A stretch of DNA of 63,145 nucleotides, counting the filler, from Sphacelaria rigidula (taxonomy: Eukaryota), in assembly GCA_964200075.2 (NCBI GenBank). It is 4 parts of 4 records of this genome, joined end to end, with 100 filler letters (N's around TTAATTAATTAA, not from the genome) between each part and the next. Parts side by side here need not be neighbours in the genome. Positions count along the whole stretch, not along the records: positions 15,815 to 31,525 come from CAXNAA020001629.1; 3 more parts are not named here. One strand, given 5' to 3'. The notes under the pieces are model-generated. The model ran no database searches. It was not told the origin of the DNA and saw nothing but the letters and a program-made list of their open reading frames with translations. The position numbers and the translations under genes were made by a program. Positions 4,480 to 55,000 of this stretch are shown here, in pieces (within the stretch, counting starts at the first letter, position 1; each line of letters starts with the position of its first letter).

Positions 4480-6560
4480 TCGTGGACGGCAGCGAAGGAT
4501 TTGGTGGCCCATGCCGTAACGCTGTTGCAATTTCGTGCTGGTTGCCAGGTGTTGTTGCCGAATGCTTCTGCGTGCCATTGGGGTAGTTTTGTCATGTGGG
4601 TGCCTAAAGTTGAGATGCAAAGACGCTTACCGGTTGAGGATATGACGCATGAACCGCTGGCTTTTCTCAGTGCTAATTTCAAGGGTTCCTAATTGCGTTG
4701 GGCCACATTTGACAAAAAAGGCTTTGCCATCGTGAACACTTTTCGTCGTTTAGAGCATCTTTTGTGGGATGTCGTGCACATTTTCACGGATCACCGAAAT
4801 CTCGTGTATGTTTTCAACCCGGAAGCGTGAGTTACGTCTGTGTCGAAGGCGTTGGCACAACGTTTGGAGGCTTGGAAAGCTGTTCTTGGCCAGTATTGTC
4901 ACTCGATTTGCCACTTTTCAGTGGCCGTAACGCGTGGGGTGACTCGCTTTCGAGTGAATATTCCGGCTTTGCCTGTGCGTGCTGTGGCTGTGCATGGTCC
5001 GTGTGGATCTCATGACTCGATGCTCAAATCTGTTGTCCGCCAAGCGCAACGAAAAGACCTTGGGGCCGAAGATGCGGATGTGAAGTATTCCGAGTCGGAC
5101 ATTGGTACTGCTATCTTCAACAATGACGGTCAGTTTTGTGTTCATGTGCGTGGCCAAAACGTTTTGGAGATTCCGAGCTCTGACAAGCAGTTGCAGGTAC
5201 GTCTGATGATTAGCGCGCACATGCGCGACGCCGGGCATCGTGGGGTGGCTGTGACGCTTGTGCGCTTGCTAGAGTTTTGTGTCTGGCAGGGGATAGAAAC
5301 TCATGTGCGCGAATATTTTCGCCAGTGTCTTACTGTGCTGACTCGAGGGTGGGCGATGTTGTTCCCCGCCCGCTCGGTGAAACGGTCCATGGGACCATGC
5401 CGAATGAAGTCGCCCATTTTGACATCTTGTACGTGTGCGGCAGTGGCCCGTTAGCTTCCCAAGGTTTGTCGGAGGATGCTGGGTTTTGATACATTTCGGT
5501 AATCATGGATTAATCAACTTCGTGTCTCTGAAACCAGTAACAGTATATACTGCTGCATCGACTGTTGCTTTGCTAGATTGGTGCATGACTTTGTGGGTGC
5601 CGCGTGTGTGAGTGAGTGACACCGGCACGCATTTCAAGAGTGCGATTTTGGTCCCATTGCGAGAGGCTTCGCACGTTGATCACCAGTTTGCGGTAGCGTA
5701 TTCTCCGTAGTCGAACGGTACGTGCGAACGCATGGTCAAGGAAGTAGTTCGAGCTCTTCGCTCTATTCTTCTCGAGCAGCGTAGAGCGGTTTCCGAGTGG
5801 GTGGATGTCTTGCCTGCGGTGCAACGGGCGCGCAATACAGCGTATCGTCGTCATTACAACAGTACGCCGTTCCACGTGATGTTTGGTCGTGCTCCTCGGA
5901 CGTCTTTCTCATTGTTGGCGTCTTAGTCGGCGGGAGAATGGAAATGTGATGTCTTGGATGATGGTCAAATGGGGCGTTCATTGCAAGGGGTCTTGGACTT
6001 GCAAGAACGTTTCCACCTTCAAGTGCAGGAACGTGTTGCCGCTGAACGTGCGCGTAGACGTGGGGGGTCCTCGTCGGGGCTGGAATTGCCGAATTTTTAG
6101 GTAGACGACTACGTATTTTATGCACGCGTGCGTCGTCCGGGCGTAACGCCCAACTTGATGGCGACGTGAACTGGTCCGTGGAGAGTGGTCGGTGCTCACC
6201 ACCCGCACGTGTGTTGAGATCCAGAGTATTGTTTCGGGTCGTGTTCAGACCGCCCATGTAGTTCTGTTGCATTTTATGCAGACTCGCAACTTCATGTTAC
6301 GGCTAACGTTAAGGACGTGTTCCAGCAAGCTTTCAATCGAAGACAATTTCAGATGGGTGGTATCGTCCGAGTGGCAGAAGCAGACGATCATTCGTTGATC
6401 GTGTTGGTCGACTGGGTTGATTTTCAAGTCGAGGAGCGTACGTGGGAGCCTTTCAAAGATACTGTTGAGGCCGCTCTGGAATATCTCACGAAGGAGTTGC
6501 GCAAGTTGCTCGTGACTCGTGCCGCTGCCGCTCGCATTACGCGTGAGTCTGGTATTCAGT
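4480..6560 (+). pseudogene. Gypsy pol remnant (RNase H, integrase, chromodomain)
   Basis: Fragments in ORFs 4369-4692, 4840-5454, 5732-5926 and 6317-6763 carry recognisable pol motifs separated by stops and frameshifts. Confidence 0.85.
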
Positions 6561-8399: not shown

Positions 8400-9100
8400 A
8401 TCCCTCCAACGTTTCCTAAACGTTTGCCGTGTTCCAATCAAACGGCGGAAAAACATCAAGTGCTCCACCGGTTGACGATTCAGCTCATATATTTTTCGCA
8501 CATGTTTTTCCACAAGCTGTCCGAGATTTCGGGCGGGGGGGGGGAGGAGGGGGGAATAGTCTCGGCAATAAAACTCTTCAANNNNNNNNNNGTGTTGATG
8601 ATGATGATGTTTTTTTTTTGGATGGTTTTGTGACAGACGCGGTCGGTTGTGGGGGGGGGGGGGGGGGAGGAGGGGGGAATAGTCTCGGCAATAAAACTCC
8701 TCAAAGGCAACTGACACCAAGAAAAAAGAGCAGAAGAAGAAAAACAGAATGGGTACAAGCCTACATGAACAGGCATATGTTGCAGGTGTTGCACATGTAC
8801 CAAAGTTACCGTTCCAAAGTTCCTCCTCTTCCCAGCGCATGGACTCCTCTTCAATGGTGCAGGGGCATGTCATCCGCCCCAAGCCTTGAATTACTGCTGT
8901 TAGACACTTGCAATGGCACATCAGTACACAAAACGCGTATGCTTCTTGCCGACACTGTGGATCCGTGAAGTAAAAACGACAGGAGGCCCTGCGAAGTCAA
9001 CGCCATGAGCGCCAGGAGAGCGCAAATGGGCCGCGTCATGAAATAGAAACTGTGCCCAAGAGTGCAATGGAGCGGGAAACAAAAAGAAGGAGGCATAATC
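8400..9100 (-). pseudogene. Possible Tc1/IS630-like DDE transposase relic
   Basis: Minus-strand fragments ADDMPLHH (cf. DNAxxH) followed by YSPLLPP..RNLGQLVEKHVR (cf. YSPxLNPIE..W..VK) in the expected order. Heavily decayed and spans a small N gap. Confidence 0.3.
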
Positions 9101-15714: not shown

Positions 15715-15814
15715 NNNNNNNNNNNNNNNNNNNNNNNNNNNNNNNNNNNNNNNNNNNNTTAATTAATTAANNNNNNNNNNNNNNNNNNNNNNNNNNNNNN
15801 NNNNNNNNNNNNNN
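15715..15814. other. Assembly gap with artificial TTAATTAATTAA linker
   Basis: 100-nt block: 44 N + ttaattaattaa + 44 N; the same construct occurs three times. Confidence 0.95.
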
Positions 15815-15916
15815 ATTGACGTACACTCCCAGAGTACGAGGCGTCTGATGTTTTTGCAACGGCAGCAGAAGGCAGTCTCGTGACAGCTCAGGGCGTGCGT
15901 ACTGCCACCCCAGCTG

Positions 15917-16740
15917 CCGCGAAACGCGAGGCTGCCTTCTGACCCGCTTACAAATGACGGTATATGCCTGGTGCTGGGTTTTCCAAGTACAGGCTGTACT
16001 TGTACCGTAGGACCGTAGTTGCTTTACAAATACTACTGCTGTATCCTGCAGCACACTGGTGGTGCACTGTGACTGTTGTTGTGGTGACCACAGACAGTAC
16101 ACTCGTACTACTTTGTACACACTACTTAATACTCTGCTGCACTGCCTTGGTGCTGTACTAATGTCCTATTCGTATTTTATCCGTCATCTCGGAAGAAAGA
16201 AATGCTCCCGTGTCGTACGATACTACCGTATGGTGGGAAACCGTAGCGAGTTTTTTCCGTTGTGTACTGGTAGCTGGCTGGACTTAGACGAGAACGGTGG
16301 TCACCACAACAACTGACAGTCACAGTGCACCACCAGTGTGCTGCAGGATACAGTAGTAGTATTTCTTAAGTAACTACTGTACTACGGTATAAGTACAGGC
16401 TGTACTTTGGAAACGTAGTACGAGGCATATACCGTCATTTGTAGGTGGGTCAGAAGACAGCCTCGTATTTCGCGGCGGTGTTTTCCGTTCTGTCTGTACT
16501 TCTTCACCGTGTAGGGTTCAACGAGACTTCGTATATGGCACATGCATATGGATGGGACATGACGCGCAGACTGAAGAGACAAGCCCCAGAAAATGTTGCG
16601 GTAGCTGGTACACAGTGCAGCTGTTCGTGAGATGCAGATTGACGGCTGGAACGGCGGTCAGTGCAACAGTACAGTACAGCGCCAAGGCGGTGCAGCAGAG
16701 TATCAAGTAGTCTTGACAAATAGTACGACTGTGCTGTCTA
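15917..16740. repeat. Interleaved inverted repeats
   Basis: 15917-16090 is the reverse complement of ~16297-16478, and ~16095-16160 is the reverse complement of ~16670-16738. Confidence 0.75.
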
Positions 16741-17709
16741 CCACCCCAAAAGTAGAGGCTGTACTTTTGCAAAAATCCGTGACGCTCAAATTCAAAAGTC
16801 ATGGGCTTTCGAATTAAAAGAAAGAACGTCGCCAGATCGGTCATAATAAAAGGTGTGGGTGGATTCTTATTTCCCCCCATATAGGTGGATATACTTTTTG
16901 CGGCGCACGTAGCCGCAAGGTTATGACGAAGACCGAAAGTTTCATCCAATCTAGACTCAGGTACAGGGTGCGCATTAGGTAATGTACATCTGATGTAGCA
17001 AGCAATATGGGTCGCCTTATAGAGCTTTCGACAGGATGCGGCGACCGGCGGGCCGCCCGCCACTTTTGGCTTTGGATGATATCATTGTCCCCATCACCTC
17101 GCCACACAGCCCTTTGTGGTCGGGGTGGGCCGCGATTTTGCTCTATATTGCAAGTGGCAAAATCTCTTCGAACGGTATCAACGTTGCGGCGCGCATACAC
17201 ACTGTACAGTACAGTACAACAGTACAGTACGCCTCTCCGACTGCAGCAGCAGCTGCTGCTGCATACTCCCTTGCACGTTTTGGGCAGTTCTCAGCAACCG
17301 AGATCAGTACAAGTACAACAGTACGTACCAATTGTTTCCCCCTGTATTGCTTCTTCTTCTTCTCGCTCGGAAGGCGGCCCGCGTTTCGACCTGCGACAAT
17401 ACCCATACCCCCTTGCGCGTGACTGCCGCCCACCTTGAAGTCGCTGGTCTGTTCGCGTGCTGTTTTACCGTCTCAGTATCACTTGTTTCTCACCCTAGCT
17501 TGCTAAATTAGAACGGCGCATGATTTCTCATTATGCTCCTTTTCCATCATAACAAAGGAAGGGAAGAAAACAAAATTGGAAGCGCGACGCAAAGCAGAGC
17601 GATCGATTTGTTCAGAGTAACCTCGTGGATCGTATTTCCGAGGCACACGACGGAACCAAAAAATCGCGGTTTGAATCAGTTGTGCGTCCAGCCTTATACA
17701 ACATATCAC

Positions 17710-18610
17710 ACCCTGGACAACACAATATGTAATATATATTGCTCGCTCAATATGTAATATATATTGCTCGCTCAATATATCGACGCGTCGGATGGTCAAG
17801 TATATATTGGGCGAGCAATATGATGACCCGAGATAGGGTTATATCAAGGCTCGCGACATGCAATATATATTGACGGAACAATATATCACGACACGCGCCA
17901 CCTCAAAATATATTGGCCCGAGTAATATGTTGGTGCGAGAAGGCACCGATGTACATTTGTCGAGTAATTTATTTGCTGCCACCCGAGATTAATACATATT
18001 GACGATTCAATATACTCGACACCCGAAGCGCCAATATATATTGCCGCCCCAATATGTCGTGTGTCAATGGGTCCAATATGTATTGGGCGGACACTACACG
18101 AGGGAGCCGACGGTCACAATACATGTTGGTGTAGCAAAATATATTGATTTTCAACATATAGATTGGAAAGTGTATCGGAATTAGCATAGTGGGTAGTTCT
18201 TTGTTCGCGGGCGCCATTCAAAGACGTATTTTACATGCCGAAAATGCTCAATGTATTCCTCCGCAAGCGTGTTCAATATATTTTGGCTGCACAAAAGCTA
18301 TCCGACCAGCGTGCGCAAGATATATTATGGTAACAATATGCTAGGCATCGCCTCGACTCAATATATATTGACACTTCAATACATACACGGTCGGCATGCA
18401 CAATATATGTTGAATGTTCATTCTCGGAGCAACTGCATGTCCAATATGTATTGACGTACATTACTTCATGATCATGACATGAGCAACATATGTTGTTGCT
18501 TCAATATCTCCGAGGACATCTCAACACAATATATATTGAAAGGACAATTTTGCGCTGGCTCCAATACGAAGTATCGGTATCATATTGGAACATATTGTAT
18601 TGTCCAGGGT
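17710..18610. mobile_element. TIR-bounded non-coding element carrying a CRISPR-like repeat/spacer array
   Basis: 21-bp TIRs accctggacaacacaatatgt (17710-17730) and acatattgtattgtccagggt (18590-18610) match at 20/21. The interior is ~16 units of CAATATATATTG-N6-CAATAT plus a unique spacer, at a 42-43-bp period. Confidence 0.85.
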
Positions 18611-19136
18611 ATAAGCAAGACAGCAAAGCTGGGGGGAGGAGGGGAGGGGTAGGGAGCAGGAATGAATCACATGGATGAAAAATTACTCGAACGACGCCTG
18701 CACCACCCGACCAGCCAATAAAACGATGCCATCTAACCCGTGAGATGCAGCATATCAGTACACCCCGTAACCACAGGGATACCAAAAGGCGCATATCGAC
18801 CCGCGTTTTCTGTCTTCGTGATGTTTAGCCAAGGTATTTATACTACATGCTGGAAAGGGGATGGGCGGCCCCGCACCGGTGGCCAGATAGGTATCAGGAG
18901 GCATGTATTCCGGGTCGCCTCTTCTGTCACCATTTTTTTTATCAGTATACGTATATATATATATATATATATATATCAAACGCATTCGACGACTTTCCTG
19001 AGTAATGCAAGCGAACTTCTGCAGCTCCCTTTGAAGCTTTTCCCAATCTGCACGGGCTCCGGCATCCATCGCGTTTGGATCTCTCTCAAAGCGTACACCA
19101 TACTTGAAATATCCAATATATTTCGACCGGCCAATA

Positions 19137-19495
19137 CATGTTTCCCAATTTTTATCTAGGCAGCATGCATCATTGGCACATGTCCCCGGCCTTCCATTCA
19201 TGCGTCATGAATAACAGGAACATGTTTCTTCTTTTCCATCCATGCAGCATCAATCACAGGCACACGTTGCCCACCTTCCACTCATACGAGGTGAATCAAG
19301 TGCACGTGTCCCCCAATTTTCACTCATGCAGTAAGAATTCCACGTACATCTTCCCCACTTTCCATTCATACGATATGAATCATTGCACATGTTTCTCACT
19401 TTTCATTTATGGAGCATGAATCATACGTACATGTTCCCCACTTTGTTTTTATACGAGACGGATGCAGTGCACGTATCCAACTTTTCATCTCATGG
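19137..19495. repeat. Degenerate ~42-bp minisatellite (~9 units)
   Basis: Consensus ~acatgttyccyacyttycattcatrcrrbrtgaatcanrngy, units starting ~19137, 19178, 19220, 19262, 19304, 19346, 19387, 19430 and 19471. It resumes at ~21342-21478. Confidence 0.8.
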
Positions 19496-20969
19496 GGTGA
19501 CTCTTCGGTTGCGCGGCTTATTTGCAAGTAGGGTAGACAAATGGAGCGTGCAGGTCGCAAGCACCTTCAGATCCAAATCCACAATAAAACCAATTGTAAC
19601 TATTGTACTCACACTTAACACGACACGACAAATACAGCACAACACACGCGTCTGCGTGCCCAAAGCGGGTCCTGGAGTTATTTCGGTTCCCGAGCTTAAC
19701 CAGTGGAGGTCTTGCTGCGGTTTCATGTTCCTTTCGCGGCACAGCTGACCTGACTATGTCAACTAATGCGAAGACAACTTCAGACAGCACCAGTACTGCA
19801 AGAGGCGGTCCTGTATGTTAGCGTGAGTTTCTGGAAACACTCCGGCAGCGCTCACTGCATTCAGCGGATAGTACAGTCAGCACAGAACAGGTTGGTACTC
19901 TGCAATTTATACGGGGGGCATTATAAAACTGCAAGACAGGCTGGTTCACGCAAATCACCCAAAATTGTGTCAACAGCAAATGCCTTTCGCGATACCTATC
20001 CAATAGTCGCATACATGACATCACACTGACCGCCATGGAAAGCTGAAGAGCGTGACATGGGCAAATTTTTATGTAACAACATAGTGGTAGCGGTAAGAGC
20101 GAAAATGTATATTGGCCAATCAGCGCCCGTCAAATTGTTCCAACATCAAAATTACGAATTCCAAGCCCAATTTCCACCAAATCTCTTCATGCTTCAAACC
20201 GTTGTAAATGTCATCGGCTCGGGAATCTAACGAACAAAATGTATTTTAGAACGGTTACCACGAGGATCGAATTATACCCCAAGCCGTGATGTTTCGGTGA
20301 TGTTGGGTGTTAGCGTCGTCTAATTTCCACTAATGATACGCACGAAAGACCCAGCGAGCCTCGTGACGGTGTCCCCTATATCTGTTGTAGAACAGCTTAG
20401 ATCGCCCTCGAACTTGGCAGCTCCGGGGTGGTGATGCTCCAAACGAAAAAATCGTATTCTTCACAATATTTCATGGTGTCTACGTTCTCTACCGGCTTAT
20501 GGGGGTCCCCGTATGAAGACCCCCGGAATCCGGTAGAGAATGCCCTAAAAGAAAAATGATGGATTGATGTGTCCCGGGATAGTCCAAGGAATACATGTAC
20601 AAAGTTTGGTGGAGAAACTCGAAAACCTCATACCGTTTTTCTTGCCTTGACATGACTTTCACCCCAAAAGATGTTTCCGTACTAAAACAAGTAGTCAGGA
20701 GTTGGATCCAAGACAATTTTCTAAGTAATCGTCATTCTGGGACCCCGGAGAACCGGCACTACGATATTTTTTACAAACTGTTTTGTGGACGAGCTGTCGC
20801 TGCATAACCCAAGGGAGGGCCTCACAAACTTTTGTCGCAAAAACTCGATCAACTGACGCTTCAATTTTCATGTTCACCCCAAAGAAGGTCCAAAAATGCC
20901 GTTTTGGTACTGAAGTCAAGTAATTTGCGGTTACACGGCGGCACGTCAAAGTTCCTCGCACAAAAGCGA

Positions 20970-21253
20970 CAAACCTCACGCCGTTTCAAGGAGTTAGACC
21001 CTGAAATTTTGCACAACTGTGCAATGGGTCATTGCGCAACTTTAGATGAACGAGGGTTCTTCAGTGATTTTTCTTCACCGTTTTACGGGGGTCCGATTAG
21101 ATCGATGCTTCCCGAAAAAAACTGGGACCCCCGAAAAACAGTGGAGAAAATCCAAAAGGCCGAAAAACCTCGACCTTCAAAAGGTGCGTAATGCCCCATA
21201 GAACATCTGTGCAAAATTTCAGCATCTAACTCCTTGAAACGGCGTGAGGTTTT
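20970..21253. mobile_element. Fold-back element (~285 bp), family shared with ~1240-1370
   Basis: aaacctcacgccgtttcaaggagttaga pairs with tctaactccttgaaacggcgtgaggttt. A similar arm (aaacttcacgccgttttctggagttggaccctgaaa) lies at ~1247. Confidence 0.75.
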
Positions 21254-21934
21254 GCCGATGAGTGTTTTTTGGGTGATGAGCCTGAACCATCCTCTACGAA
21301 ACCTTTTATTCAAATAACATGGATCATCCGTAAATGATCCCGTTCCATTCATGCAGCATGAATCAAGCGTACATGCTCCTCACCTCCATTCATACAAGGT
21401 GAATTAGGTGTATCTCTTTGAGCGTGATTAATGTGAGATGAATCAAGTGTACATGTTTTCCACAAGTGATTCATACAACTATTGTGATTTAGCAATATTT
21501 TTCACGCTTGATTTGTGTTGCACTACTTGGAATGTACACATTCCCAGTTCATGGTTTGTGCGGCACGGTTTTGAGCGTGCAACTTCACAACCCGTGATTC
21601 ATACGATACGACGCTTTGATCCATGAAGAGTCAACCCGTACGAACTCTGATTTGATCAAATCGTGAAATGGGGTAGACTGAGAGAAAGAGAAGAGAAAAA
21701 AAGAGCTGAAAGTTATGGGCCTCTGCAAGATGGCTTCGGCGGCCAGGATCTTGCTTGCGCAAAAGCACACAACCACACCCAATCGTGAGAACAGAAGGCC
21801 GCGGGACCACGTTGCGGCTGATCTCTTTAGGCCTCACTATTCTGGGTATGAAGCTCTCCTCTATGAAGATAACGAGAGCAAGGCATCAAGGTACTACTTC
21901 AATGCACCGGGAGGAAAGGGTGCATATATATACT

Positions 21935-22274
21935 TGTGTGTCGTGTGTGTTGTGTGGGTTGTCGTCCCATTTATTCCGGGCGCCACTCTACACGGTATAT
22001 GTGGGCGCATCAGCCGGGGTCACACAGGAGGAAGGTCAACACAAGGGCTTTTTTTTATTTGTTTTCGATACCCCACCTTCCTTCCGCGGTGCTTGCCTTT
22101 TATTTTTTTCGTGAGAGGGGTTCAGCAGTCCCTTCCCTGTGTACCCACGACAGGGTCGCTCTCCACTTTTGGGCATGGTGTGAGAAAAGATCCGAGAGCG
22201 CTCCGGGAATCGAACCCCACTACTCAACCGTCAAAAGGTTACGAGGTTACCACCTGAGCCACCGGGGCGACCGG
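21935..22274 (-). mobile_element. SINE family B
   Basis: Same body as other copies; minus-strand tRNA-like head ccggtcgccccggtggctcaggtggt...gggttcgattccc. A further partial copy lies at ~22737-22853. Confidence 0.7.
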
Positions 22275-25046
22275 TTCATATACCTAGAGAAAAAAATGAG
22301 GAAAGAAAGGGAGAGCAAAGTAGGAGACTACAGAGATGATGAAACCCGACAGATATTATACCATTCAAATTTCACTTAATGAAGTTGGTTTCTGCTCAAA
22401 TTCGACTAACGGCTTCTGGCGACTCTATTTTTGCGACTCATTTTTTGCTAGCGGATCCTACGTCCTTACGTTTGGCAGCCGGCAACGTAGTTTTTCAGGG
22501 GTCCTACTAGCGATATCAACTTACTGTTCACTCGAGCAGAGTTTCCAGGTGAAAATTATGGCGATCGCCTCACCTGCTATTCGCCCAGATGTTGTAGACT
22601 CCTTCACGACGTCACTGAGTAACATTACATACATGTCGAAATGTACCAGGCCCTGCATTATACGTCAAACTGTACCAGACCGTGAGCACAGATTTCTACA
22701 GTCAGTACGGACATGATGCTAAAAGTGTACTGCGCACAGTGTTTTGAGTGTTTTGTCGTCCCATCTATTCTGGACGCCGGTCTTCATCTTTTGGTATATG
22801 TGGGCGCACCAGCCGGGGTCACAGAGGAGAAAGGCCAACACAGGAGGTTTTCTAGGTAGGCAGCCATCACAGGGGCGGAGGCGGCCACCATGCGCCACCT
22901 GGGGCAAACGCACGCTGTAGCTGCAACACGGGCGACTTTACAACATGTGGCGTGGCGATATAGCGCGTAGCGAGGGGTGATATCCCGCGCACCCGCGCAC
23001 ACGTTGGCCGCAGGTACAAGCGGCTGCGCTCATGATGTGGTGAATCGCATAGGACAGCGCGAAATCAATGCAGGGCAGGGGTAGGCTAAGGATGTCACGT
23101 CCTGCGGTGTGCTCTGTCACCTTGCACCCTGTCGCTGTGCAGTGAGAATGTAGTACCGCCGAAGGCGTCACGCTGCGGTTGGTACGCAGTGTACGCAGTG
23201 TCGAACACAGCAGCACGGGTATTGTAAATACATGCACACGTCTTCCAAGATCGATGCGCGCACACACAGCAACTACTATCGCCATCCACCATCGATCAGG
23301 TGGGTAACCCCCCTCCTCAGATAGGGTACCCGGGGGTCTCCCCCCCCCCTCTCTTCCTACGACACCAGAATGAGGTTTGGGCGACATGGGGGGGGCGTGC
23401 CGTCATTTTCCGATATGGTGTCCCTCGGCTCAACATACAGCTGCTTGACGCTTGACGTTGCCTCCTGTCTGAGAAACAGTTGTTTGCAACTTTTGGTGTG
23501 TGGCATACCGGGAAGCAAGTCCTGTACATGTACTTGAAAGCAGGCATGGCAGCGGCTGGGACAAGTGCCGGACGAACCAACGGGAGTTTGCTGGGAAACG
23601 ACTCGCGTCTCAGCGCTGGCTTGCTGTGGGCCCTTGCGAATGTCGGGCGGCGGCGATAACACGAACACGATTTATGCTTCAATACAGCTTTATGCTTCCG
23701 TGCAAGGACGCGTCACCATACCTCGGGTGCGTGCGGCAGACCTTCATTTTAGAGCCACTTCTAAGGACCCGGTCGGGACCACTCCGGATTTATCGCCGCA
23801 ATTCAAGGGCGCGATGTCACAAACACCGAAATTAATTAAAATTAAAAGCGCCCTGACCACAGGGCAACCCATACAGCGAAACCAGTACAAAACCACACCA
23901 GGGAGCACCGGAAAACCACCGACCGGAGACACAATCAACAATCGATTGGAAGAGAAAGGAGTACATCGGTTTCTATATTTGCCCAATTCCTCGCATTCAT
24001 CCCTAGTCAGGCGCAAAGCGGGCAATTATTTCGGTCTTCTCCATCTTCGATTTGTCGCTGCTGTTGCTCTTACTGTGCTACCGAGGGAAGTTACCCAATC
24101 GGCGGCCCACGACACATCAGGTCCTCGTTTGTGGCGGTGCCTTTGCGTCGCTACGTGTCCTTGAACTCTTCCACCCCTTTTCCGACTCCAAGATGCTACT
24201 CGCCTTCGCGGCAGTGACCCAATCGTGCGCATTTGGACCTCTACACCGTAAACGATCCATTTCCGTCGCGCTCCTATGCGTGGTAGAGCTCATAGTGCAC
24301 GTAGGTATCTCCTTGAGGTCTTCCCCATAGTGTTTGGGGCGGCTGCCAGCCTCCTTGGGCCCTTGTGCGGCTGACAGTCCGTGGTGATGCCTTTGGACAG
24401 GCGCGTTTCGTTCTACAGGACAAAGCCCCCCGCGAACCACAGTTGACGCTGCGGTACATTTTCTGTTGGTCATCTCGGGCACAGCTCTGTACGGAAGAGT
24501 CTTGCAGCCCGTTCGATTTTCCTGCAGAATCCAACCACGTGTAGCAAAAGCTGGTGATGTGCAGTGCGCAGACTGTCGATGTCCTCGGAACGTACGGTTC
24601 ATGTGGCACATCGTTTCGAAAGAGCTTCCGCCACCTATGCTTTCAGCAGCCGAGCTTCCAAAGATAGCTGAGCGTTGATATGATCGTGGAGTGGAGAACG
24701 ATACTTTCGCAGACGTGCTCACGGCACGCTGATGCGGTGGTTGATTTTGATTGAAACCTTCGCATCCACGCTGGCAGCACGAAGGTAGACAGAGTTGGCT
24801 GCCTGCTTGTACCGTTGACTTGCCGCCCTGATATGCAGGGCGATCTCTGTGGAACCGGATACTAACCACAGGTGCATGTTACTTTCGTTTTTACTCTGTC
24901 GTCAGGTGGAGCAATGGAATGAATGGAAGAGCAGGTGGACGTGAGCAGAGCATGACGTAGACCCGTCCTTGGATACTGTACGAGGCTGAAAACCTCACGC
25001 CTGCAGAAAGGTGGAGGTCTGCTCATAGCACGCCGAGAGTGGTATA

Positions 25047-26849
25047 GTGAATGTTCAACGAAAGACGTCCTGCAGGGAGGGCTGCTTCAAGATAGCGTCG
25101 TTTAGGCTGGCGGGGAGCGGGAAGATACAGTTCTGCTCACAGCATGCCGAGGACAGAGTGGTGAATGTCAGGAACAAGTCGTGCCGCAGAGAGGGGTGCT
25201 TCATAATCCCGTCGTTTGGGTTTGGGGGAAGCAAGAAGGCGGAGTTTTGCTCACAGCACGCCGAGGACGGAATGGCGAATGTCAAGAACAAGACGTGCTG
25301 TAGAGAGGGCTGCTTGAAGATAGCGTCTTTTGGGTTGGTGGGAAGCAAGAGGGCGGAGTTCTGCTCACAGCACGCTGAGGACGGAATGGTTGATGTTAGG
25401 GACAAGACGTGCTGCACAGAGGGCTGCTTGAAGAGAGCGTCGTTTGGGTTGGCGGGAAGCAAGAAGGCCGAGTTCTGCTTACAGCACTCCGAGGACGGGA
25501 TGGTGAAGGTCGTCAACAGGACGTGCTGCAGAGAGGGCTGCTTCATAACCCCGTCATTTGGGTTGGCGGGAAGCAAGAAGGCGGAGTTCTGCTCACAGCA
25601 CGCCGGAGACGGGATGGTGAATGTCATCTGCAGGATGTGCTGCAGAGAGGGCTGCTCGAAGATTCCGTCGTTCGGGTTGGCGGGAAGCAAGAAGGCGGAG
25701 TTTTGCTCAGAGCATGCGGGAGACGGAATGGTCAATGTCAAGAAGAAGACGTGCTGCAGAGGGAGCTGCCTCATAATGCCGTCGTTTGGGTTGGCGGGAA
25801 GCAAGAAGGCGGAGTTTTGCTTACAGCACGCCGAGGGCGGGATGGTGAACGTCCTCAACAAGTTGTGCTGCGCAGAGGGCTGCTTAAAGACCCCGTCGTT
25901 TGGGATGGTGGGAAACAAGAAGGCGGAGTTTTGCTTACAGCACGCCGAGGACGGAATGGTTAATGTCAAGACCGAGACGTGCTGTAGAGAAGGTTGCTCC
26001 AAGCGGCCGTCGTTTGGGCTGGCGGGAAGCAAGAAGGCGGAGTTCTGCGCACAGCACGCGGAAGACGGGATGGTTAATGTCGTCAATACGACGTGCTACG
26101 GAGAGGGCTGCTTCAAGCTACCGTCGTTTGGGCTGGCGGGAAGCAAGAGGGCGAAGTTCTGCCTACAGCATTCCGAGGACGGAATGGTGAATGTCGCCAA
26201 CAAGTTGTGCTGCAGAGAGGGCTGCTTGAAGAGAGCGTCTTTTGGATTGGTGGGAAACAAAAGGGCGGAGTTCTGCTCACAGCACGCCGAGGACGGAATG
26301 GTGAATGTCGTCAACAAGACGTGCTGCAGAGAGGGCTGCTTGAAGAGAGCGTCTTTTGGGTTGGCGGGAAGCAAGAGGGCGGAATTCTGCTTACAGCATG
26401 CCGGAGAGGGCATGGTTAATGTCAGGAGGAAGATATGCTGCACAGAGGGCTGCTTCAAGCGGCCGTCGTTTGGGTTGGCGGGAAGCACAAAGGCGGAGTT
26501 CTGCCCACAGCACGCCCACAGCGAGATGGTGAACGTCCGCTCCAGCAAAAATGTCCGATCAGCAGCTTGCCGTTTTGAACAACCGGCGATTCGCACGAAA
26601 ATGGTGAAGCTAGAGATAGCTGTGCAAAAGTCAAATGACAGGGGAGGATATCCAAGACGGGCACGTATTCGCGGAATGCGGCAGTCGAAGCACGGTGAGG
26701 CTCCGAAGAGTAGCACCACAAAGAGAGCTGAGCTCACTCGTACGACTGGTGAGCTATCTACGGAGCAAGTTACCCATAGCATGACCACCGCATGCGTGCT
26801 AATGTGCGAGGGCGTGACGAGCGTGAAGTCCGAGATGAGCGTCTCATAG
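25047..26849 (+). CDS. EsV-1-7 domain (Cys/His zinc-finger-like) tandem-repeat protein, 13 x 38-aa repeats
   Basis: 600-codon open frame; repeat consensus K.CCREGC.K.PSFGLAGSKKAEFC.QHAEDGMVNV (C-x4-C...C-x2-H), matching the brown algal/phaeovirus EsV-1-7 repeat, then a basic C-terminal tail. The true start is uncertain: first in-frame ATG at 25272, in-frame TAG at 25026-25028 within a degenerate upstream repeat. Confidence 0.9.
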   Translation: MNVQRKTSCREGCFKIASFRLAGSGKIQFCSQHAEDRVVNVRNKSCRREGCFIIPSFGFGGSKKAEFCSQHAEDGMANVKNKTCCREGCLKIASFGLVGSKRAEFCSQHAEDGMVDVRDKTCCTEGCLKRASFGLAGSKKAEFCLQHSEDGMVKVVNRTCCREGCFITPSFGLAGSKKAEFCSQHAGDGMVNVICRMCCREGCSKIPSFGLAGSKKAEFCSEHAGDGMVNVKKKTCCRGSCLIMPSFGLAGSKKAEFCLQHAEGGMVNVLNKLCCAEGCLKTPSFGMVGNKKAEFCLQHAEDGMVNVKTETCCREGCSKRPSFGLAGSKKAEFCAQHAEDGMVNVVNTTCYGEGCFKLPSFGLAGSKRAKFCLQHSEDGMVNVANKLCCREGCLKRASFGLVGNKRAEFCSQHAEDGMVNVVNKTCCREGCLKRASFGLAGSKRAEFCLQHAGEGMVNVRRKICCTEGCFKRPSFGLAGSTKAEFCPQHAHSEMVNVRSSKNVRSAACRFEQPAIRTKMVKLEIAVQKSNDRGGYPRRARIRGMRQSKHGEAPKSSTTKRAELTRTTGELSTEQVTHSMTTACVLMCEGVTSVKSEMSVS

Positions 26850-31525: not shown

Positions 31526-31625
31526 NNNNNNNNNNNNNNNNNNNNNNNNNNNNNNNNNNNNNNNNNNNNTTAATTAATTAANNNNNNNNNNNNNNNNNNN
31601 NNNNNNNNNNNNNNNNNNNNNNNNN
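31526..31625. other. Assembly gap with artificial TTAATTAATTAA linker
   Basis: 100-nt N block with central linker. Confidence 0.95.
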
Positions 31626-38409: not shown

Positions 38410-38647
38410 CAGGTGTGCTCATGATCTTGCATGTCATTGCCATATGACCATTGACCTCGCCTCCCTAGAGTGTACTCATGATTTTGCATGCCATGGTCAT
38501 ATGACCATTGACCTCGCATCCCTACAAAGCCGGGATGGAGCACCCCGGGTTTTCGCCGGACTAGGCTCGCAAAGCAGTCGCCAAGCCCGAAGCGCCGTGA
38601 TGTGTTCGGCGAGTCGCATGAATGCTGAGCTTCAGCCTGCTAAGATT
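38410..38647 (+). mobile_element. Dispersed SINE-like repeat, family A
   Basis: gtactcatgatc.tgcatgcc..gtcataagacc.ttgacctcgcatccctacaaagccgggacggagcacgccggg...ccggaccaggctcgca; copies at ~42918-43024, 52625-52880 (two), 56095-56190 (minus) and 59930-60110. Confidence 0.75.
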
Positions 38648-41729: not shown

Positions 41730-44700
41730 GCGCACATGGGGAGGTCGAACTGGCGACCTACAAGACCCGCACACTGTCCTCTACGGGAAAGAACAGGGTT
41801 GGTTATGCTGAGGCGGTTCTGCCAAAGTGTCAAGCGGTGGGTTGTGGCGTAATTAGAGTGCAGGAGACGGAGACGATGCCGAGCCGAGTTCGCTGCTGTG
41901 GAATACCGTGTCTTCTGCTGTGGGACAGATGGGGGTAAGGAAAGGGCTGGACAACATGGGATCGGCTTAGCGGTCCAGGAGTCGATCATCAACCAGGCGA
42001 CGTGGACTCAGGCGCTTACCAGGGAACGCCTCGGGTCGATGATTTTCAACCTTACAGGTGAATCGAACGTTGTCACGCCTGCGGTTGCCTTTGCCTCTGC
42101 GGGTACATCAAAGTCAAGATAAGAGAGAGATACGTTTGGACTAAGTCGGACAGCACTATGAATCAACTTCCCAACAAGCATCACGTGTTTATTTTATGAG
42201 ACGCTCACTAGGGTTGGAGTAAGAACAGGAGAGGAGGATTGTACAGTGCTAAGGGCGTACGACGGCGACTCCCGAGCCAACGACAGCAAAGGCACCTCTT
42301 TGCTACAATTTGCGGGTGACAAGAGGCTTGCCCCGGTCAACGCGTTTTTATTCACCCGCAAAGGAGACCCGTCTTGTACGCTAACGGTATTACGGATCAT
42401 CCCGCTGACAAAAAATAAATCGATATTCTCACAGGGCAAGATCACCGCAGGCTTGTACATAAAATCACTGCCCACCTTCAACTACCCAATTCACCGGACT
42501 CTGATGACAACATCGTTTGTGCCTCAATGCGGCTCCTTGATCGTCTCACACTCCACAGACCTTGGCGAAGCCCAACTAGGGGCAAGCCGATCGACAGGCG
42601 GGCGATAACATCCGATAGGCGTGAGCAACCCATCGAGTCCACAATCAGGGAGCTCAAGCTAGGAAGAACTGGCAACGAAGACAGTACTTTGACTGCGAAA
42701 TCGCCGACACGTTCCCGAGCTTCCCTGAAAAGTTCCCCGTGTGACCACAAAGCCACGCACATCGTGGTGGTTAGAAGATACTGCGGCCCGACCGGAGTTC
42801 GAGCAGGCCTGGAATGAGAGGGAAGGGCGAGGTTGGTGGGAGTGGGACTGATATTCAACCCCACACGGCGCGAATTTGCCAGGATCGTGCCGTAAGCCCA
42901 CAGAGATGATCAAACCTGGGGGAGGTGTACTCATCATCATGCATGCCATAGTTATAAGACCATTGACCTCGCACCCCTACAAAGCCGGGACGGAGCACGG
43001 CGGGCTTTCGCCGGACCAGGCTCGGGTGGACACGTACATGGGTGTGTATGCGAAGGAACTAGAGGAGTATGTTAGGATTGAGTAAGTACATGAGAGAATA
43101 GTAGGATATCTGAAAAGAGGGTGGAGTCGGTCAGGACGACAAGTAGAGAGAGAGAAACACATCGGAAGCGAGGGCGGGAATCTACTGCGAGACAAATATT
43201 CAATGTGTGAGAGTTGGGGACGATACTTCTTCCCCTTGCTGAGTGCCATGTCGATGATTCTCGGCCAAGCCGCCATCGAGAATACTGCGCAGCGACCGAC
43301 AGCGCTGCCACATGAAGACCCGCCAAGCCCAACTGAATTCGTGGATGCCCTTAGAGCCACGGCAAACGGCAAAGCGACGGGCCCGGGTGGTCTGTCTGTT
43401 GAACTCATCAACCTCGGGTTGGTCGGGGAGCCTTTGAAGATTATTTACCATGTCCACGGCACCATCGCTGCGGTCTGGACATGTGGCGAGATGCTGCAGG
43501 AGTGGAAAGACGCCACTATCAAAGTGCTACACGAGAAGGATAGGATCGGGTGTGGAAATTACAGGGGCATCTACCTCGTGCGACATGCTGGTAAAATTCT
43601 GCTGGAACTCAAGACGAACAGGCTCGGTAGTTTCTGGGAGGAGCAAGGGATCTTCCCGGAAGTGCAGGGCAGAATCTGGCGCCAACGATCGACCATCGAC
43701 ATGATATTCGTGGTACGCCGAGTAAAGCAGTTAGGACGTGAGAGTCATATCCCACTAAACATGCGTTTCATCGACCTGCAGAAGGTCTACGATTCCGCAG
43801 ATCGCACTCTCCTGTGGGCAGTGCTTGCCCGGTCCGGAGTCCTGCTGCGGATGATCAAGGTCATCCGCATGCTTCACAATGGCATGCGAGCTCGGGTACA
43901 GCTGGATGATGGCGAACAATCAGCGTGGTTTCACGTCTACCAGGGACTCGGGCGCGGATACGTTTCGTTCCCGCTACTGATCATCATCTTCGGCGCATCC
44001 TTGGTCGACGTCGTTTTGTAGCGGTTCGCGACAGACCCAACCACTGCATCAGACCTAGTACATGTATATGATTCGCCAAAAGGTGAATATAGTGCACCCC
44101 TGAAAGAGATGCCGCTGGAGTTGAGTACGGCTCGAGGTTCGGGGAATGCTAGATGCAGATGACGCTGGCAGAGTCTCGAAGTCTGCAGACGAGCTTTCTG
44201 GGATGATGGTCGTGATGACGGTGGTGGCCCGTCAGGAGTTCGGATTAACGGTATCGGAGAGGAAGACAGGGTCCACGCGCCTGTCGTCAGTACCCAGCTC
44301 CGCAGGGGGCGCACTGCACATTATGCGACATATGTACAGAAAAAACAGATGTCAGAGTTTGTCTACACCTTGGTACTCCCTTCGGAACCAAGGTCCGCAT
44401 CAGCACTGCGTTGGCACGCCACCGAAAGCATAGCTCCCAACTCTACGATCGGCCCAACGCCTAGCTACCTCTGAAAACACAGCTGCTTAAAGGCCGAGGT
44501 GATGGAAGCCATTCTGTACGAATGTGCTCCATGGGCACTGCGTCCCGAGGATTTCGAGAGTCTCCGCGCACGCACCGTCAGCATTTAGCGGGAGTGTTTT
44601 GATTCCGCTGAAAGGAGCGAACCGGCGTAGAGAGATGCTCGAGATGACCAACTGCGCCCACACCGAGACGACTATCTGCGTCAACTCTGGTTTACGGGGG

Positions 44701-47336: not shown

Positions 47337-47436
47337 NNNNNNNNNNNNNNNNNNNNNNNNNNNNNNNNNNNNNNNNNNNNTTAATTAATTAANNNNNNNN
47401 NNNNNNNNNNNNNNNNNNNNNNNNNNNNNNNNNNNN
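47337..47436. other. Assembly gap with artificial TTAATTAATTAA linker
   Basis: 100-nt N block with central linker. Confidence 0.95.
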
Positions 47437-52000: not shown

Positions 52001-55000
52001 CCTCGACTGCCTCTACGTCCTCTCTTACCTTCTCTCCATGGCTTATTGGATCGGCAGCACTTGCCGGAAAACTTGTGTAGTCATATGTTGATACGCTCCA
52101 CGTGGGCCCAGAGCCCGGATGAATTAGATCCCGCGTGGTATCCTGTGAACCGCCTGAGGAACGTGGCGGTTGCCGGAGTGGATACAACGCACTTCCTGAT
52201 GACGGACATTGACATCTGGCCGGACGCTAAGGCGTACGAGGCGTTGCATATGCGGTACAGGCTCGAGACAGAACGGTCAGTCGGTTGGTGATTTCAGGAA
52301 TGCAAATTTATTGGAATATGCAACGAAGACGAAGCTTCTGCACGGCACGCGTGCATGCTCATTATAATCATCATATCTCTCGCTCGCTCGCTCTCTTCCT
52401 CGTGTGTGACGTTTTCGTCGCTGCCTCTCTATATATTTTTTTCCGGCTCCTTCCTCAACGCGATGGGAAACATCACGGAAAAAAACAAAACAAAATATCA
52501 ACAGGATGGAGGACCCTCACAACGCCATTGTGTTCTCGGCGTTCAGTCGACGACGATTCTGTGATGAGGGCACTTGCTTGGAGGTGCGCGAGGTTGTGTG
52601 TTCCGGGGGGGGAGAGTGTGTGTGGGGGGTACTGATGATCTCGCATGCTGTCGTTTTAAGATCGTAGACCTTGCATTCCTGTAAGGCCGGGACAGAGTAC
52701 GCCGTGTTTTGGCCGGATCAGGCTCGCAGTCACCAAGGGGAAGTGGGGGTGGGGGGGGGTGGGGGGGGTGTACTCATGATCGTGCATGCCATCGTCATAA
52801 GACCGTTGACCTCGCATCCCTTCAAAGCCGGGACGGAGCACGCCGGGTTTTCGCCGGACCAGGCTCGCACTCAATCACCAAGCGCGAGAGTGGGGGGGGG
52901 GGCTACTGCTTGCTTGCTTGCTTGCTGCTGACCTCCGTTCCAACAGTACAAAATAACTATTTCTCGTCACATTTTGGTTCGACACGAGCTTGCTTTCTTC
53001 TCCTTGCTGCTGCTTGCTGCTGCTTGCTGCTGCGGGCGTCTGTTGGTGAAGAGCACAAGTACGCGTGTATTTCCGTCGTCTTTGTTGTGACTTTGGTTTG
53101 GACGCGAGTCTCCTGTTGTTCCTTGACCACCGTCACCATTATACTACACTGAGTGTATTGCTGGGGGAACACTACTAACTGCCTTGTGAGGGCACCTAGT
53201 GTCGTTCTTGGTTATCGTCGAAGCGATGATGCTGTCAAGACATCCGCGTTCCACAGTATATATATATATATATATAGGGTTTCGTCATGTCTGCTTTCAT
53301 GTTTTTGGTGCTCACGTATGTCGCGGTTGGAGCTCACGTACCTCTCTCTTCTCCATCTCGCACAAATGCCGTCACGTCTTTTATCTGTGCTACAGTGTGC
53401 GTGGATCTCCTCCGTTAGTGCGCGCATGTTTTCATTTGTTCTTTTCAGCTCAAGATGCGCGTTGCTGCTGCAACTCAACAGTGCGTTTATTTACGGGTCA
53501 AATTCTTGTTTATTTATCTACTTTTCATGTAAACTCGACACGTGTCGTTTCTACTGTATAACTAAACTGAAACTGTGTGCGTTTTGATGTAAGTCAAAAT
53601 GCTGCTGCACTTTTTTCACAGGCATGTGTTTTTTTTTCTTCAATTTGACAACTCAGAATTTCAGGGCTCTTTACGGCATACATCGCACGTACGTTACACG
53701 TCACAAACGTTACGTTACGAAGGAGTGACGTAACGTGACGTATGTTTTTCGAATACGTCACTACTGTGTCGTGACGTAATGTACCGGTGAAAAAATGTAA
53801 CGTGACGTAACGTACATTTTTCAAGACGTCACAAAAGTGACGTGGCGTGACGTATTTTTTATACGTTACATTGACGTGTTTTGAAACATTTCCTGTAACG
53901 TGTAATGTATTTGATACGTTACACGTCACAATAAACGTCACACGTCACAATAAACGTCACATTATACCTGTGTGACGTCTGAATGAACGTCACAACCGTC
54001 ACACGCTCAACTTGTACCATAAATAGTGAGACTAGCACAATGTGTGATCCTCGCATGATATGATACACGGGTTCAAGAAGAGTGCATACTTCATCATAAT
54101 ACGCGGGCGATGTGAGCGCAAGTTTAGCGCCACGGCAGCACGCATCGCCACACCACACCCAACCATAGAACGTAAAACAAGCGAACATCGAAATCCGAAA
54201 GCACGACTTTCGAATTTCCGAATTTCAAATTTCCAACTTCGATAGCACAGACGGGGGCGGGAGCGACGTATCGTAACGATGAGCGCGGCCCAGGATACCA
54301 TAACGATGAGTCATGATGTGTTTCTACCTTCATGATGTCCGCCCTGCGAACGCGGCTAGATTTGTACCGGACCATCAGTTGATGTGTAATATGTATAGAA
54401 TACAGATTTTCTGCATACACGCCCTGCTGAGTGATCAAGTAATTATAACAATACGGAATCGGATTGCCAAGTGTTGGGTGTCCAACGAAATGCTAACCGA
54501 CTACCAGGTATCACCAACGCATGGTGTGTACACATTTGCGTTTGCATGTGTACATCATGGCCTGCCTGCATCTCGGTATGTCACTATTAATACTTTCTGA
54601 TTATCGAACATCAATAAAGTACTACTCATGCATTTATTTTGAAATTGCAACGTGTGAGTCAGGGACGCATGAGCGATACAGTAGCTGAAACGCGTTCTTA
54701 CATGTCGGAATAGCGATCAGAATGCGGCTCATGCTCGAACAAGGCAGCCACTGTGAACCTCCCGTACCAAGTTACGATACATGAAACGTTTCAACGCTGT
54801 ACGTGGCGTCCATTTGCCCTCAACACTGTCGAAGTGTAACCTTTCATATTACGTTACACGTGCCAAACGTAACGTATAACTTTTTAAGACATCACAAGTG
54901 TGACGTAATGTGATGTACCGGCAAAAAAATGTGACGTGACGTAACGTACACATATTCATACGTCACATTTGTGACGTAACGTGTAACTGTAACGTGTAAC

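Follow-up and report, generated by a model that had tools for sequence, protein, structure and literature searches.

A 63,145-nucleotide stretch of DNA from Sphacelaria rigidula (GCA_964200075.2), referred to here as the window, holds at positions 17710–18610, within record CAXNAA020001629.1, an array of approximately 18 units of CAATATATATTG-N6-CAATAT, each followed by a GC-rich spacer of 18–19 nt (59% G+C), with a 21-nt inverted repeat on both sides. The array is part of a dispersed, multi-copy family whose copies have identical spacers and whose left boundary lies at ~17707, and the cores of its units decay neutrally after insertion. We favor, at a probability of roughly 0.55, a reading in which the element is a non-coding class II mobile element and its phased palindromes would be docking sites for the protein that mobilizes it. 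An earlier note on this DNA had proposed either a helically phased lattice of protein-binding sites in a mobile element or a transcribed guide array resembling those of CRISPR or TIGR systems. Of these two proposals, the lattice stays the best reading, given that the cores and the 42–43-bp spacing are kept while the spacers have diverged, and that the inverted repeat shares the hexamer.

Units and spacing of the CAATAT array

Sixteen of the 17 unit positions listed in the earlier note were recovered at ≤2 mismatches. The remaining unit, at 17947 (CGATGTACATTT), has four mismatches to the core, and an additional unit at 18135 was absent from that list; the inner 6-mers read as quoted there. Across the 63-kb window, the 12-mer CAATATATATTG had 22 matches at ≤2 mismatches, 17 of them within 17730–18538. 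Shuffled sequences yielded a mean of 1.77 matches (standard deviation, sd, 1.30; maximum 6), and 22 was reached in 0 of 100 shuffles. Successive units are mostly 41–43 bp apart, as previously described (13 of 17 spacings; mean 42.46, sd 0.63), and the four off-period spacings measure 25, 63, 18, and 139 bp. The 25-bp duplication reported at the left end is exact (17723–17778, 2.2 copies, 100%) and is all that Tandem Repeats Finder (TRF) returned for the array.

On the plus strand, the left half of the array (17723–18159) opens with a pair of exact 25-bp units, after which come units at 17798, 17861, 17904, 17947, 17990, 18032, 18074, 18117, and 18135; each unit comprises a palindromic core of 12 nt, then N6, CAATAT, and a GC-rich spacer of 18–19 nt. 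The right half (18274–18569, plus strand) has units at 18274, 18316, 18359, 18401, 18442, 18484, and 18527, and all units in both halves share one direct orientation. Between the halves lies a non-repetitive, motif-free stretch of ~115 bp (18160–18273, plus strand), which is common to other copies of the family, with contigs aligning over 17957–18229 and 18205–18504. The array thus leaves part of the space between the inverted repeats unfilled, contrary to the earlier description.

Conservation along the unit is uneven. Among the 14 regular units, column conservation was 1.55 bits in the core and 1.01 bits in the second hexamer, as opposed to 0.19 bits in N6 and 0.295 bits in the spacer. The spacers differ from unit to unit, as had been claimed from the sequence, but are not entirely free of mutual similarity: 0.295 bits exceeds the control value of 0.188 (sd 0.033; p = 0.002 and 0.0015 with shuffled and rotated controls). 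Certain N6 segments copy that of a neighbor, directly or in inverse orientation, for example CTCGCT/GGCGAG. Because a weak similarity among spacers remains, we read the array as an old tandem duplication from which nothing but motif and unit length has survived. Similarity over the whole length of the unit, the hallmark of a minisatellite, was not found (spacer 0.295 versus core 1.55 bits per column), and this, together with the TRF result, upholds the earlier view that the array is no ordinary minisatellite. Moreover, spacings of 41–43 bp despite near-random spacers suggest a constraint on length, since neutral decay should have scattered the lengths by insertions and deletions.

Copies with the same spacers in the same order

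To look at other copies, Logan contigs of four runs were aligned to positions 17300–19000 at ≥80% likeness. Three are DNA-type runs from two studies, namely X1 and X3 (one organism, one study) and X4 (an "algae metagenome" from the other study), while X6 is guessed to be RNA. Statistics on differences and on joints were drawn from the best-supported rows only (the best 40 of 251 difference rows and the best 15 of 210 joint rows). The region was fitted by 5844 contigs from X1, 4596 from X3, 5490 from X4, and 149 from X6, counts that include two flank repeats. By likeness, the X1 contigs divide into 551 at ≥99%, 1386 at 95–99%, 2310 at 90–95%, and 1597 below 90%. Summed word depth in X1, which is not a copy number, ranged from 46,562 to 196,200 over the 16 bins of the element, and was 190 (17642–17698) and 112 (18668–18724) in the unique bins beside it. 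Each variable place in the element was covered by 26–114 distinct contigs.

Contigs of 230–300 nt were colinear with this copy over 5–7 units, with 15–18% other letters and 0–6 gaps; examples are X1 record 1 (17840–18124; 48 other letters, 2 gaps) and X4 record 19 (18258–18517; 42 other letters, 4 gaps). As a control, five-unit blocks were compared out of register (12 left-versus-right pairs), and 0.40–0.65 of their letters matched. Because out-of-register blocks reach only this level, alignments at ≥80% need homologous spacers, and the colinear contigs therefore indicate that other copies share these spacers and their order.

This result bears directly on the proposal that the array is transcribed and processed into ~42-nt guide RNAs, for which shared spacers in an unchanged order in other copies had been set beforehand as a ground for rejection. 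CRISPR and TIGR arrays alternate conserved, partly palindromic repeats with dissimilar segments of fixed length, and the effector of TIGR systems is Tas, a protein with a Nop domain. The CAATAT array resembles them in this formal architecture, including weak 6-bp stems at ATATTG-N6-CAATAT, but differs in being a dispersed multi-copy family with identical spacers, in a eukaryote-like genome, without spacer turnover or a linked effector. The hairpins that single units can form are marginal (–0.5 to –3.3 kcal/mol, calculated as DNA). The array half folds better than its shuffles to a similar extent on both strands (z = –4.7 and –3.9), which is expected from DNA palindromes rather than from a strand-specific RNA signal. 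Rfam gave 0 matches at E up to 1, and the X6 contigs, some of which lie on the element at 84–90% likeness, have no bearing on processing. We consider a guide function to have a negligible probability; the array is not a member of the CRISPR or TIGR arrays, and works otherwise.

Searches for effectors and for spacer matches were in keeping with this. A Pfam scan of 193 open reading frames (ORFs) in the window (134 of ≥110 aa from the whole window and 59 of 55–109 aa from 15800–24900, leaving out nine ORFs of 55–109 aa inside the array) returned no Cas, TnpB/Fanzor, Nop, transposase, or Rep/helicase domain, although genes with short exons could escape it. The earlier statement that no cas, Fanzor, or other effector gene is visible in the window was therefore borne out. 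Neither the two-unit array pattern nor a 19-mer of the inverted repeat occurred in any viral contig. The one-unit pattern was found in six AT-rich viral contigs with 3–6 scattered cores each and no phased array, and the metagenome matches to the 19-mer, at 20 loci, were all unrelated single hits with 0–2 cores each and no array. Of the two spacers tried against viral contigs (out of ~15), that at 18056–18073 had 0 exact matches; that at 17885–17903 had two, on mutually unrelated GC-rich contigs (51 of 139 flanking letters alike), which is compatible with chance. For these two spacers, the matches elsewhere that a guide array had led one to look for thus did not rise above chance level.

The comparison with other copies also revealed how this copy has decayed. 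The best 40 of 251 difference rows include 26 within the element, and at every one of these 26 this copy departs from the family majority. Spacers account for 11, cores for nine, N6 and the second hexamer for two each, and positions outside the array units for the last two. Of the 24 in-array differences, 11 (46%) thus fall on motif positions, compared with 42% of the unit length. As the share of differences in the motif is close to its share of the unit, the cores are not mutationally cold, and inserted copies lose the motif at the background rate. At 10 of the 11 differing motif positions from these rows, the exception being 17871, the majority agrees with the motif. Substituting the majority letters turns unit 17947 into CAATATATATTT and units 17990, 18274, and 18442 into perfect cores, and shifts two degenerate hexamers towards CAATAT. 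Since the majority restores the motif, the broken cores are private decay of this copy, and the array of the source element was cleaner. The survival of the motif among otherwise near-random units therefore points to selection on the transposing lineage rather than to low mutability.

These observations also weigh on the possibility that the array is a functionless, decayed minisatellite riding in a successful element, its cores having been conserved through AT-rich palindromes, slippage, or conversion. The direct orientation of all units, the residual similarity of the spacers, and the presence of an ordinary second 42-bp minisatellite 500 bp away all suit this explanation, and tandem repeats are common inside elements resembling MITEs (miniature inverted-repeat transposable elements; PMC3879986, PMC7492417). 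It does not fit well with the bimodal conservation (1.55 and 1.01 bits in the motif versus 0.19 and 0.29 elsewhere), nor with a unit length held at 42 bp ± one base. Furthermore, because the motif mutates as often as the spacers in the inserted copy (11 of 24 differences, from the best 40 of 251 rows), low mutability cannot explain the pattern. We regard this explanation as improbable.

The second array with a 42-bp period occupies two blocks 1.8 kb apart (19136–19478 and 21299–21463). Its consensus is roughly TTCCATTCATGCagcATGAATCAnnnGnACATGT, which contains an inverted hexamer pair, ATTCAT-N5-ATGAAT, and the palindrome ACATGT. Its units are 61–80% alike over their full length, so that this array is an ordinary decaying minisatellite. 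Directly before it, at 19114–19137, stands a solitary unit, CAATATATTTCG-ACCGGC-CAATAC, which is like the family-majority form of unit 17861 and is perhaps a relic or a stray binding site.

Boundaries of the family and its possible carriers

The inverted repeat, ACCCTGGACAACACAATATGT, lies at 17710–17730 (plus strand) and 18590–18610 (minus strand); the agreement of 20 of 21 nt (95% complementary) is as previously described. Its 19-mer has only these two sites in the window, against 0.01 expected, and no third copy of the repeat was present in the window at ≤3 mismatches. CAATAT is located 12 nt into each repeat (17723–17728 on the left), and a second CAATAT follows 7–10 nt deeper.

At the left end, the alignments of 42 X1 contigs stop at 17707, where the letters outside are mutually unlike (agreement 0.41); at every other listed loose end the agreement was 0.71–0.97, resembling subfamily insertions and deletions. 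Because the continuations are diverse there, we take ~17707 to be the true end of the family, 3 nt outside the left inverted repeat (17707–17730 in all, plus strand). Further to the left, a separate high-copy repeat at 17357–17641, with X1 summed depth up to ~140,000, is separated from the element by 65 bp of unique sequence; X6 contigs break at ~17604 within this repeat, again with diverse continuations. Comparison of the window with itself revealed no second copy of the element, of its tail, or of this left-flank repeat.

The right-hand inverted repeat, by contrast, lies inside the family, and contigs continue through it into a tail. The first part of the tail is 18611–18624 (plus strand), and the X1 letters that precede 18763 agree at 0.97 and read through the inverted repeat. 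In 13 of the best 15 of 210 joint rows, 18595–18625 is linked to 18763–18855, typically with ~6 other letters in between (38 contigs from X1, 27 from X3, 28 from X4, and three from X6), and X1 record 7 aligns to both 18445–18624 and 18770–18883. Because contigs join across this gap, the 145 bp at 18625–18769 (plus strand) are private to this copy, either as an insertion or as a replacement of the ~6 letters present in other copies, and the family goes on through 18770–18952 (plus strand). The latter stretch has an element-like depth and was followed as far as a (TA)n run at 18952–18976. Hence, of the earlier description of an array packaged inside a terminal-inverted-repeat (TIR) element, the left side stands, with the repeat at a true family boundary, but the right side does not, as copies extend at least ~200 bp further.

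The element agrees with a MITE in being short, non-coding, and of high copy number (many diverged contigs and no domain matches in the scanned ORFs), but not in having TIRs at both family boundaries, given that the right repeat is internal. Furthermore, no target-site duplication was seen at the inverted repeats of this copy (CACA before the left, TATA after the right). Together, the internal right repeat and the lack of such a duplication mean that a simple cut-and-paste MITE is not demonstrated.

The same asymmetry brings into play a non-autonomous rolling-circle element of the Helitron2/Helentron type, similar to HINE and DINE-1, in which the palindromes might act in a single-stranded intermediate, bind the Rep/helicase, or be mere central repeats. 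In the sections of PMC4067079 that define HINEs, the subterminal inverted repeats lie 2–4 nt from the 5' end and 38–60 bp from the 3' end, the target is TT, and repeats occupy the center. The corresponding sections of PMC3627910 place the asymmetric terminal inverted repeats of Helitron2 0–2 bp from the 5' end and 20–30 bp from the 3' end, with insertion after TTTT. Many non-autonomous Helentron and Helitron2 elements were at first mistaken for tandem-repeat MITEs. Helitrons are also present in the brown alga Ectocarpus, with 13 families and 4688 copies in Table 1 of PMC12477816.

These published definitions fit our element in part. Its left inverted repeat begins at 17710, 3 nt from the boundary at 17707 and hence within 0–4 nt of the 5' end, while the right one is internal and followed by a conserved tail. 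Like the non-autonomous Helentron/Helitron2 elements that carry tandem repeats, among them HINE and DINE-1 (PMC4067079), Helitron2 as defined in PMC3627910, the oyster carriers of Cg170 (PMC7492417), and clam DTC84 (PMC3879986), it combines an inverted repeat beside the 5' end with a direct tandem interior, a subterminal second repeat plus tail, a high copy number, and no coding capacity. No target-site duplication is seen in this copy, and the letters before 17707 are T-rich, ending in ..TTC in X1 and ..TTTC in X6. However, the agreement of these flank consensuses is just 0.41 (X1) and 0.64 (X6), and the flank of this copy reads ..CATAT. No marked hairpin follows the 3' inverted repeat (z = 0.10 for 18585–18624, 0.68 for 18770–18960, and 0.59 for the 30-letter majority continuation). 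The tail of at least ~200 bp and the 21-nt inverted repeat are both longer than published (20–60 bp and 8–15 nt, respectively), and no RepHel partner was seen in the window. Lastly, unlike in those elements, the monomers here are inhomogeneous, with an 18-nt motif kept in each 42-bp unit. We regard a Helentron-type carrier as possible but unlikely.

Another alternative is that the array represents the end region of a larger cut-and-paste element. Giant KDZ, EnSpm, and Sola-1 elements, with nested insertions fixed among copies, are described for Ectocarpus in the portion of PMC12477816 devoted to its transposable elements.

A further candidate was suggested by the start of the inverted repeat, which is CCC. 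Repeats of piggyBac elements start with CCC and are flanked by TTAA, and a piggyBac origin was rejected as this copy has no TTAA flanks.

The palindromes as candidate docking sites

The reading we favor can be laid out as follows. In a brown-alga-like genome, a non-autonomous, non-coding class II (DNA) element would have become very abundant, and the stretch 17707–18952 would be one of its copies, old and mutated, with an interior derived from an ancient tandem duplication of 42–43 bp. Selection in the transposing source lineage may then have preserved a unit length near four helical turns (at 10.6 bp per turn), together with the palindrome CAATAT|ATATTG and the third CAATAT that lies six bases past it, while the remaining positions became all but random. 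We read the cores as putative docking sites because the hexamer CAATAT also forms the inner half of the inverted repeat; they would be bound, repeatedly, by the DNA-binding domain of the protein that mobilizes the family. With ~18 sites on one face of the helix, binding might be cooperative and might assemble the complex required for movement. The mode of working would be that of the subterminal repeats of other DNA transposons, except that here the whole element is filled. The binding, its cooperativity, and the identity of the mobilizing protein are all inferred.

Subterminal repeats offer the closest precedent. En/Spm, with its 12-bp TnpA motifs, and Hermes likewise have subterminal repeats that bind transposase. 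The transposases of Lemi1/Emigrant and Sleeping Beauty cooperatively bind subterminal motifs in which the inner half of the TIR recurs, as set out in the relevant passages of PMC1636448. Emigrant and its relatives, as portrayed there, resemble the CAATAT family in that an inner-TIR motif is repeated inside a non-coding, high-copy element; in those systems transposase binding is cooperative and the arrangement of sites matters, while here the binding is putative. Moreover, subterminal-repeat transposons have 2–10 irregularly spaced sites near each end, whereas here ~18 direct sites extend over nearly the whole 900 bp with a strict 42–43-bp period, and each site is a palindrome plus a third half-site.

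Iteron arrays, in which direct repeats of a binding motif are phased by helical turns at plasmid and viral replication origins, provide a second comparison. They share with the CAATAT array the direct protein-binding motifs, spaced by whole turns, with variable sequence in between. In contrast to them, the array here belongs to a mobile element that is dispersed and bears an inverted repeat, has no linked initiator gene or AT-rich unwinding region, and had no counterpart in the viral contigs searched.

Several points weigh against docking sites in a class II element. The family does not end at the right inverted repeat, most copies extending at least ~200 bp further, and no target-site duplication was seen at the inverted repeats of this copy. 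No DNA-transposase domain was found by Pfam in the ORFs of the window, nor was a partner with the same ends present in the window. The units are direct across both halves, which is the layout of a tandem duplication and not that of mirror-image subterminal sites. The proportions given above for differences and joints rest on the best 40 of 251 and the best 15 of 210 rows, respectively, and selection on the cores could serve a purpose other than transposase binding.

One such purpose would be binding by a host protein, for example a dimeric transcription factor or a chromatin protein, which would make each copy a portable module for regulation or silencing. Half-sites arranged as a palindrome (CAAT..ATTG) suit a dimeric factor. 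The spread of transcription-factor motifs by MITEs has been described (PMC5950925). Nevertheless, the motif decays neutrally in inserted copies, and selection seems to act on the source element and not on copies in place. We consider a host factor very unlikely.

It is also conceivable, though in our judgment rather unlikely, that the array represents a cis-architecture new for a eukaryotic DNA transposon: a strictly phased lattice, filling the element, with four turns per unit and ~18 three-half-site palindromes, along which a protein would polymerize on one face of the DNA, such that the number and phase of sites, and not a pair of ends, would decide mobility. Such a dependence on site number and phase could also account for the lack of a classical right terminus.

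Tandem repeats inside MITE-like elements and subterminal repeats that bind transposase are already known. What is unusual here is the strictly phased lattice of ~18 three-half-site palindromes that fills the element, along with the clean contrast between conserved sites and drifted spacers. The 12-mer CAATATATATTG had no match in a literature search, and a 10-mer of the inverted repeat matched 202 papers, the ten listed among them giving unrelated primer-type sequences. The family may already be catalogued in a curated library of brown-alga transposable elements, such as the Ectocarpus library of PMC12477816.

Other features of the window were noted alongside the array. A long open frame at 25008–26846 encodes 13 EsV-1-7 cysteine-rich repeats (25029–26846; Pfam E = 5e-202), and in its DNA a 114-bp unit is repeated in tandem 13.2 times (80% matches); in the sections of PMC12477816 that deal with it, the EsV-1-7 domain is reported to have proliferated in brown algae and to occur elsewhere mostly in giant viruses. 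Together with the "algae metagenome" label of one run that contains the stretch, this gene suggests a nuclear genome of brown-alga type. A foldback-like structure at 15916–16476, with 161-nt arms that are 88% complementary and 239 nt between them, is probably another small mobile element. Inverted 88-nt arms at 20971–21252 (84% complementary) match 1247–1366 at ~68% and resemble a further dispersed repeat family, and the tandem repeats at 38413–38524 (57 bp) and 52624–52900 (141 bp) are related, share a common start (GTACTCATGATC..GCATGCCAT), and may constitute yet another. Retroelement remnants lie at 4831–5451 and 43086–44018, with matches to Integrase_H2C2, a zinc-binding domain of integrase (E = 9e-08), and, weakly and below the Pfam cut-off, to reverse transcriptase (E = 2e-04). 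Three N patterns (15715–15814, 31526–31625, and 47337–47436), each with an identical 44 N + 12 bases + 44 N and placed 15,811 bases apart, look like artifacts of masking or assembly and not like biology, as does a run of 10 N at 8582–8591.

For the study of RNA-guided systems, our results mean that an apparent CRISPR-like array in a eukaryote is a mobile-element family and is not to be pursued as such a system. For the annotation of brown-alga genomes the family may matter in another way: it appears to make up a large amount of repeated DNA, can be mistaken for a tandem repeat, and can be missed by repeat finders, as with TRF and its single 25-bp duplication. If the palindromes are docking sites, the family would offer a clean case from nature in which selection holds both motif and helical phase at many binding sites of a non-coding transposon while the rest drifts, and, should the partner protein be found, it would be a good system for cooperative end recognition.

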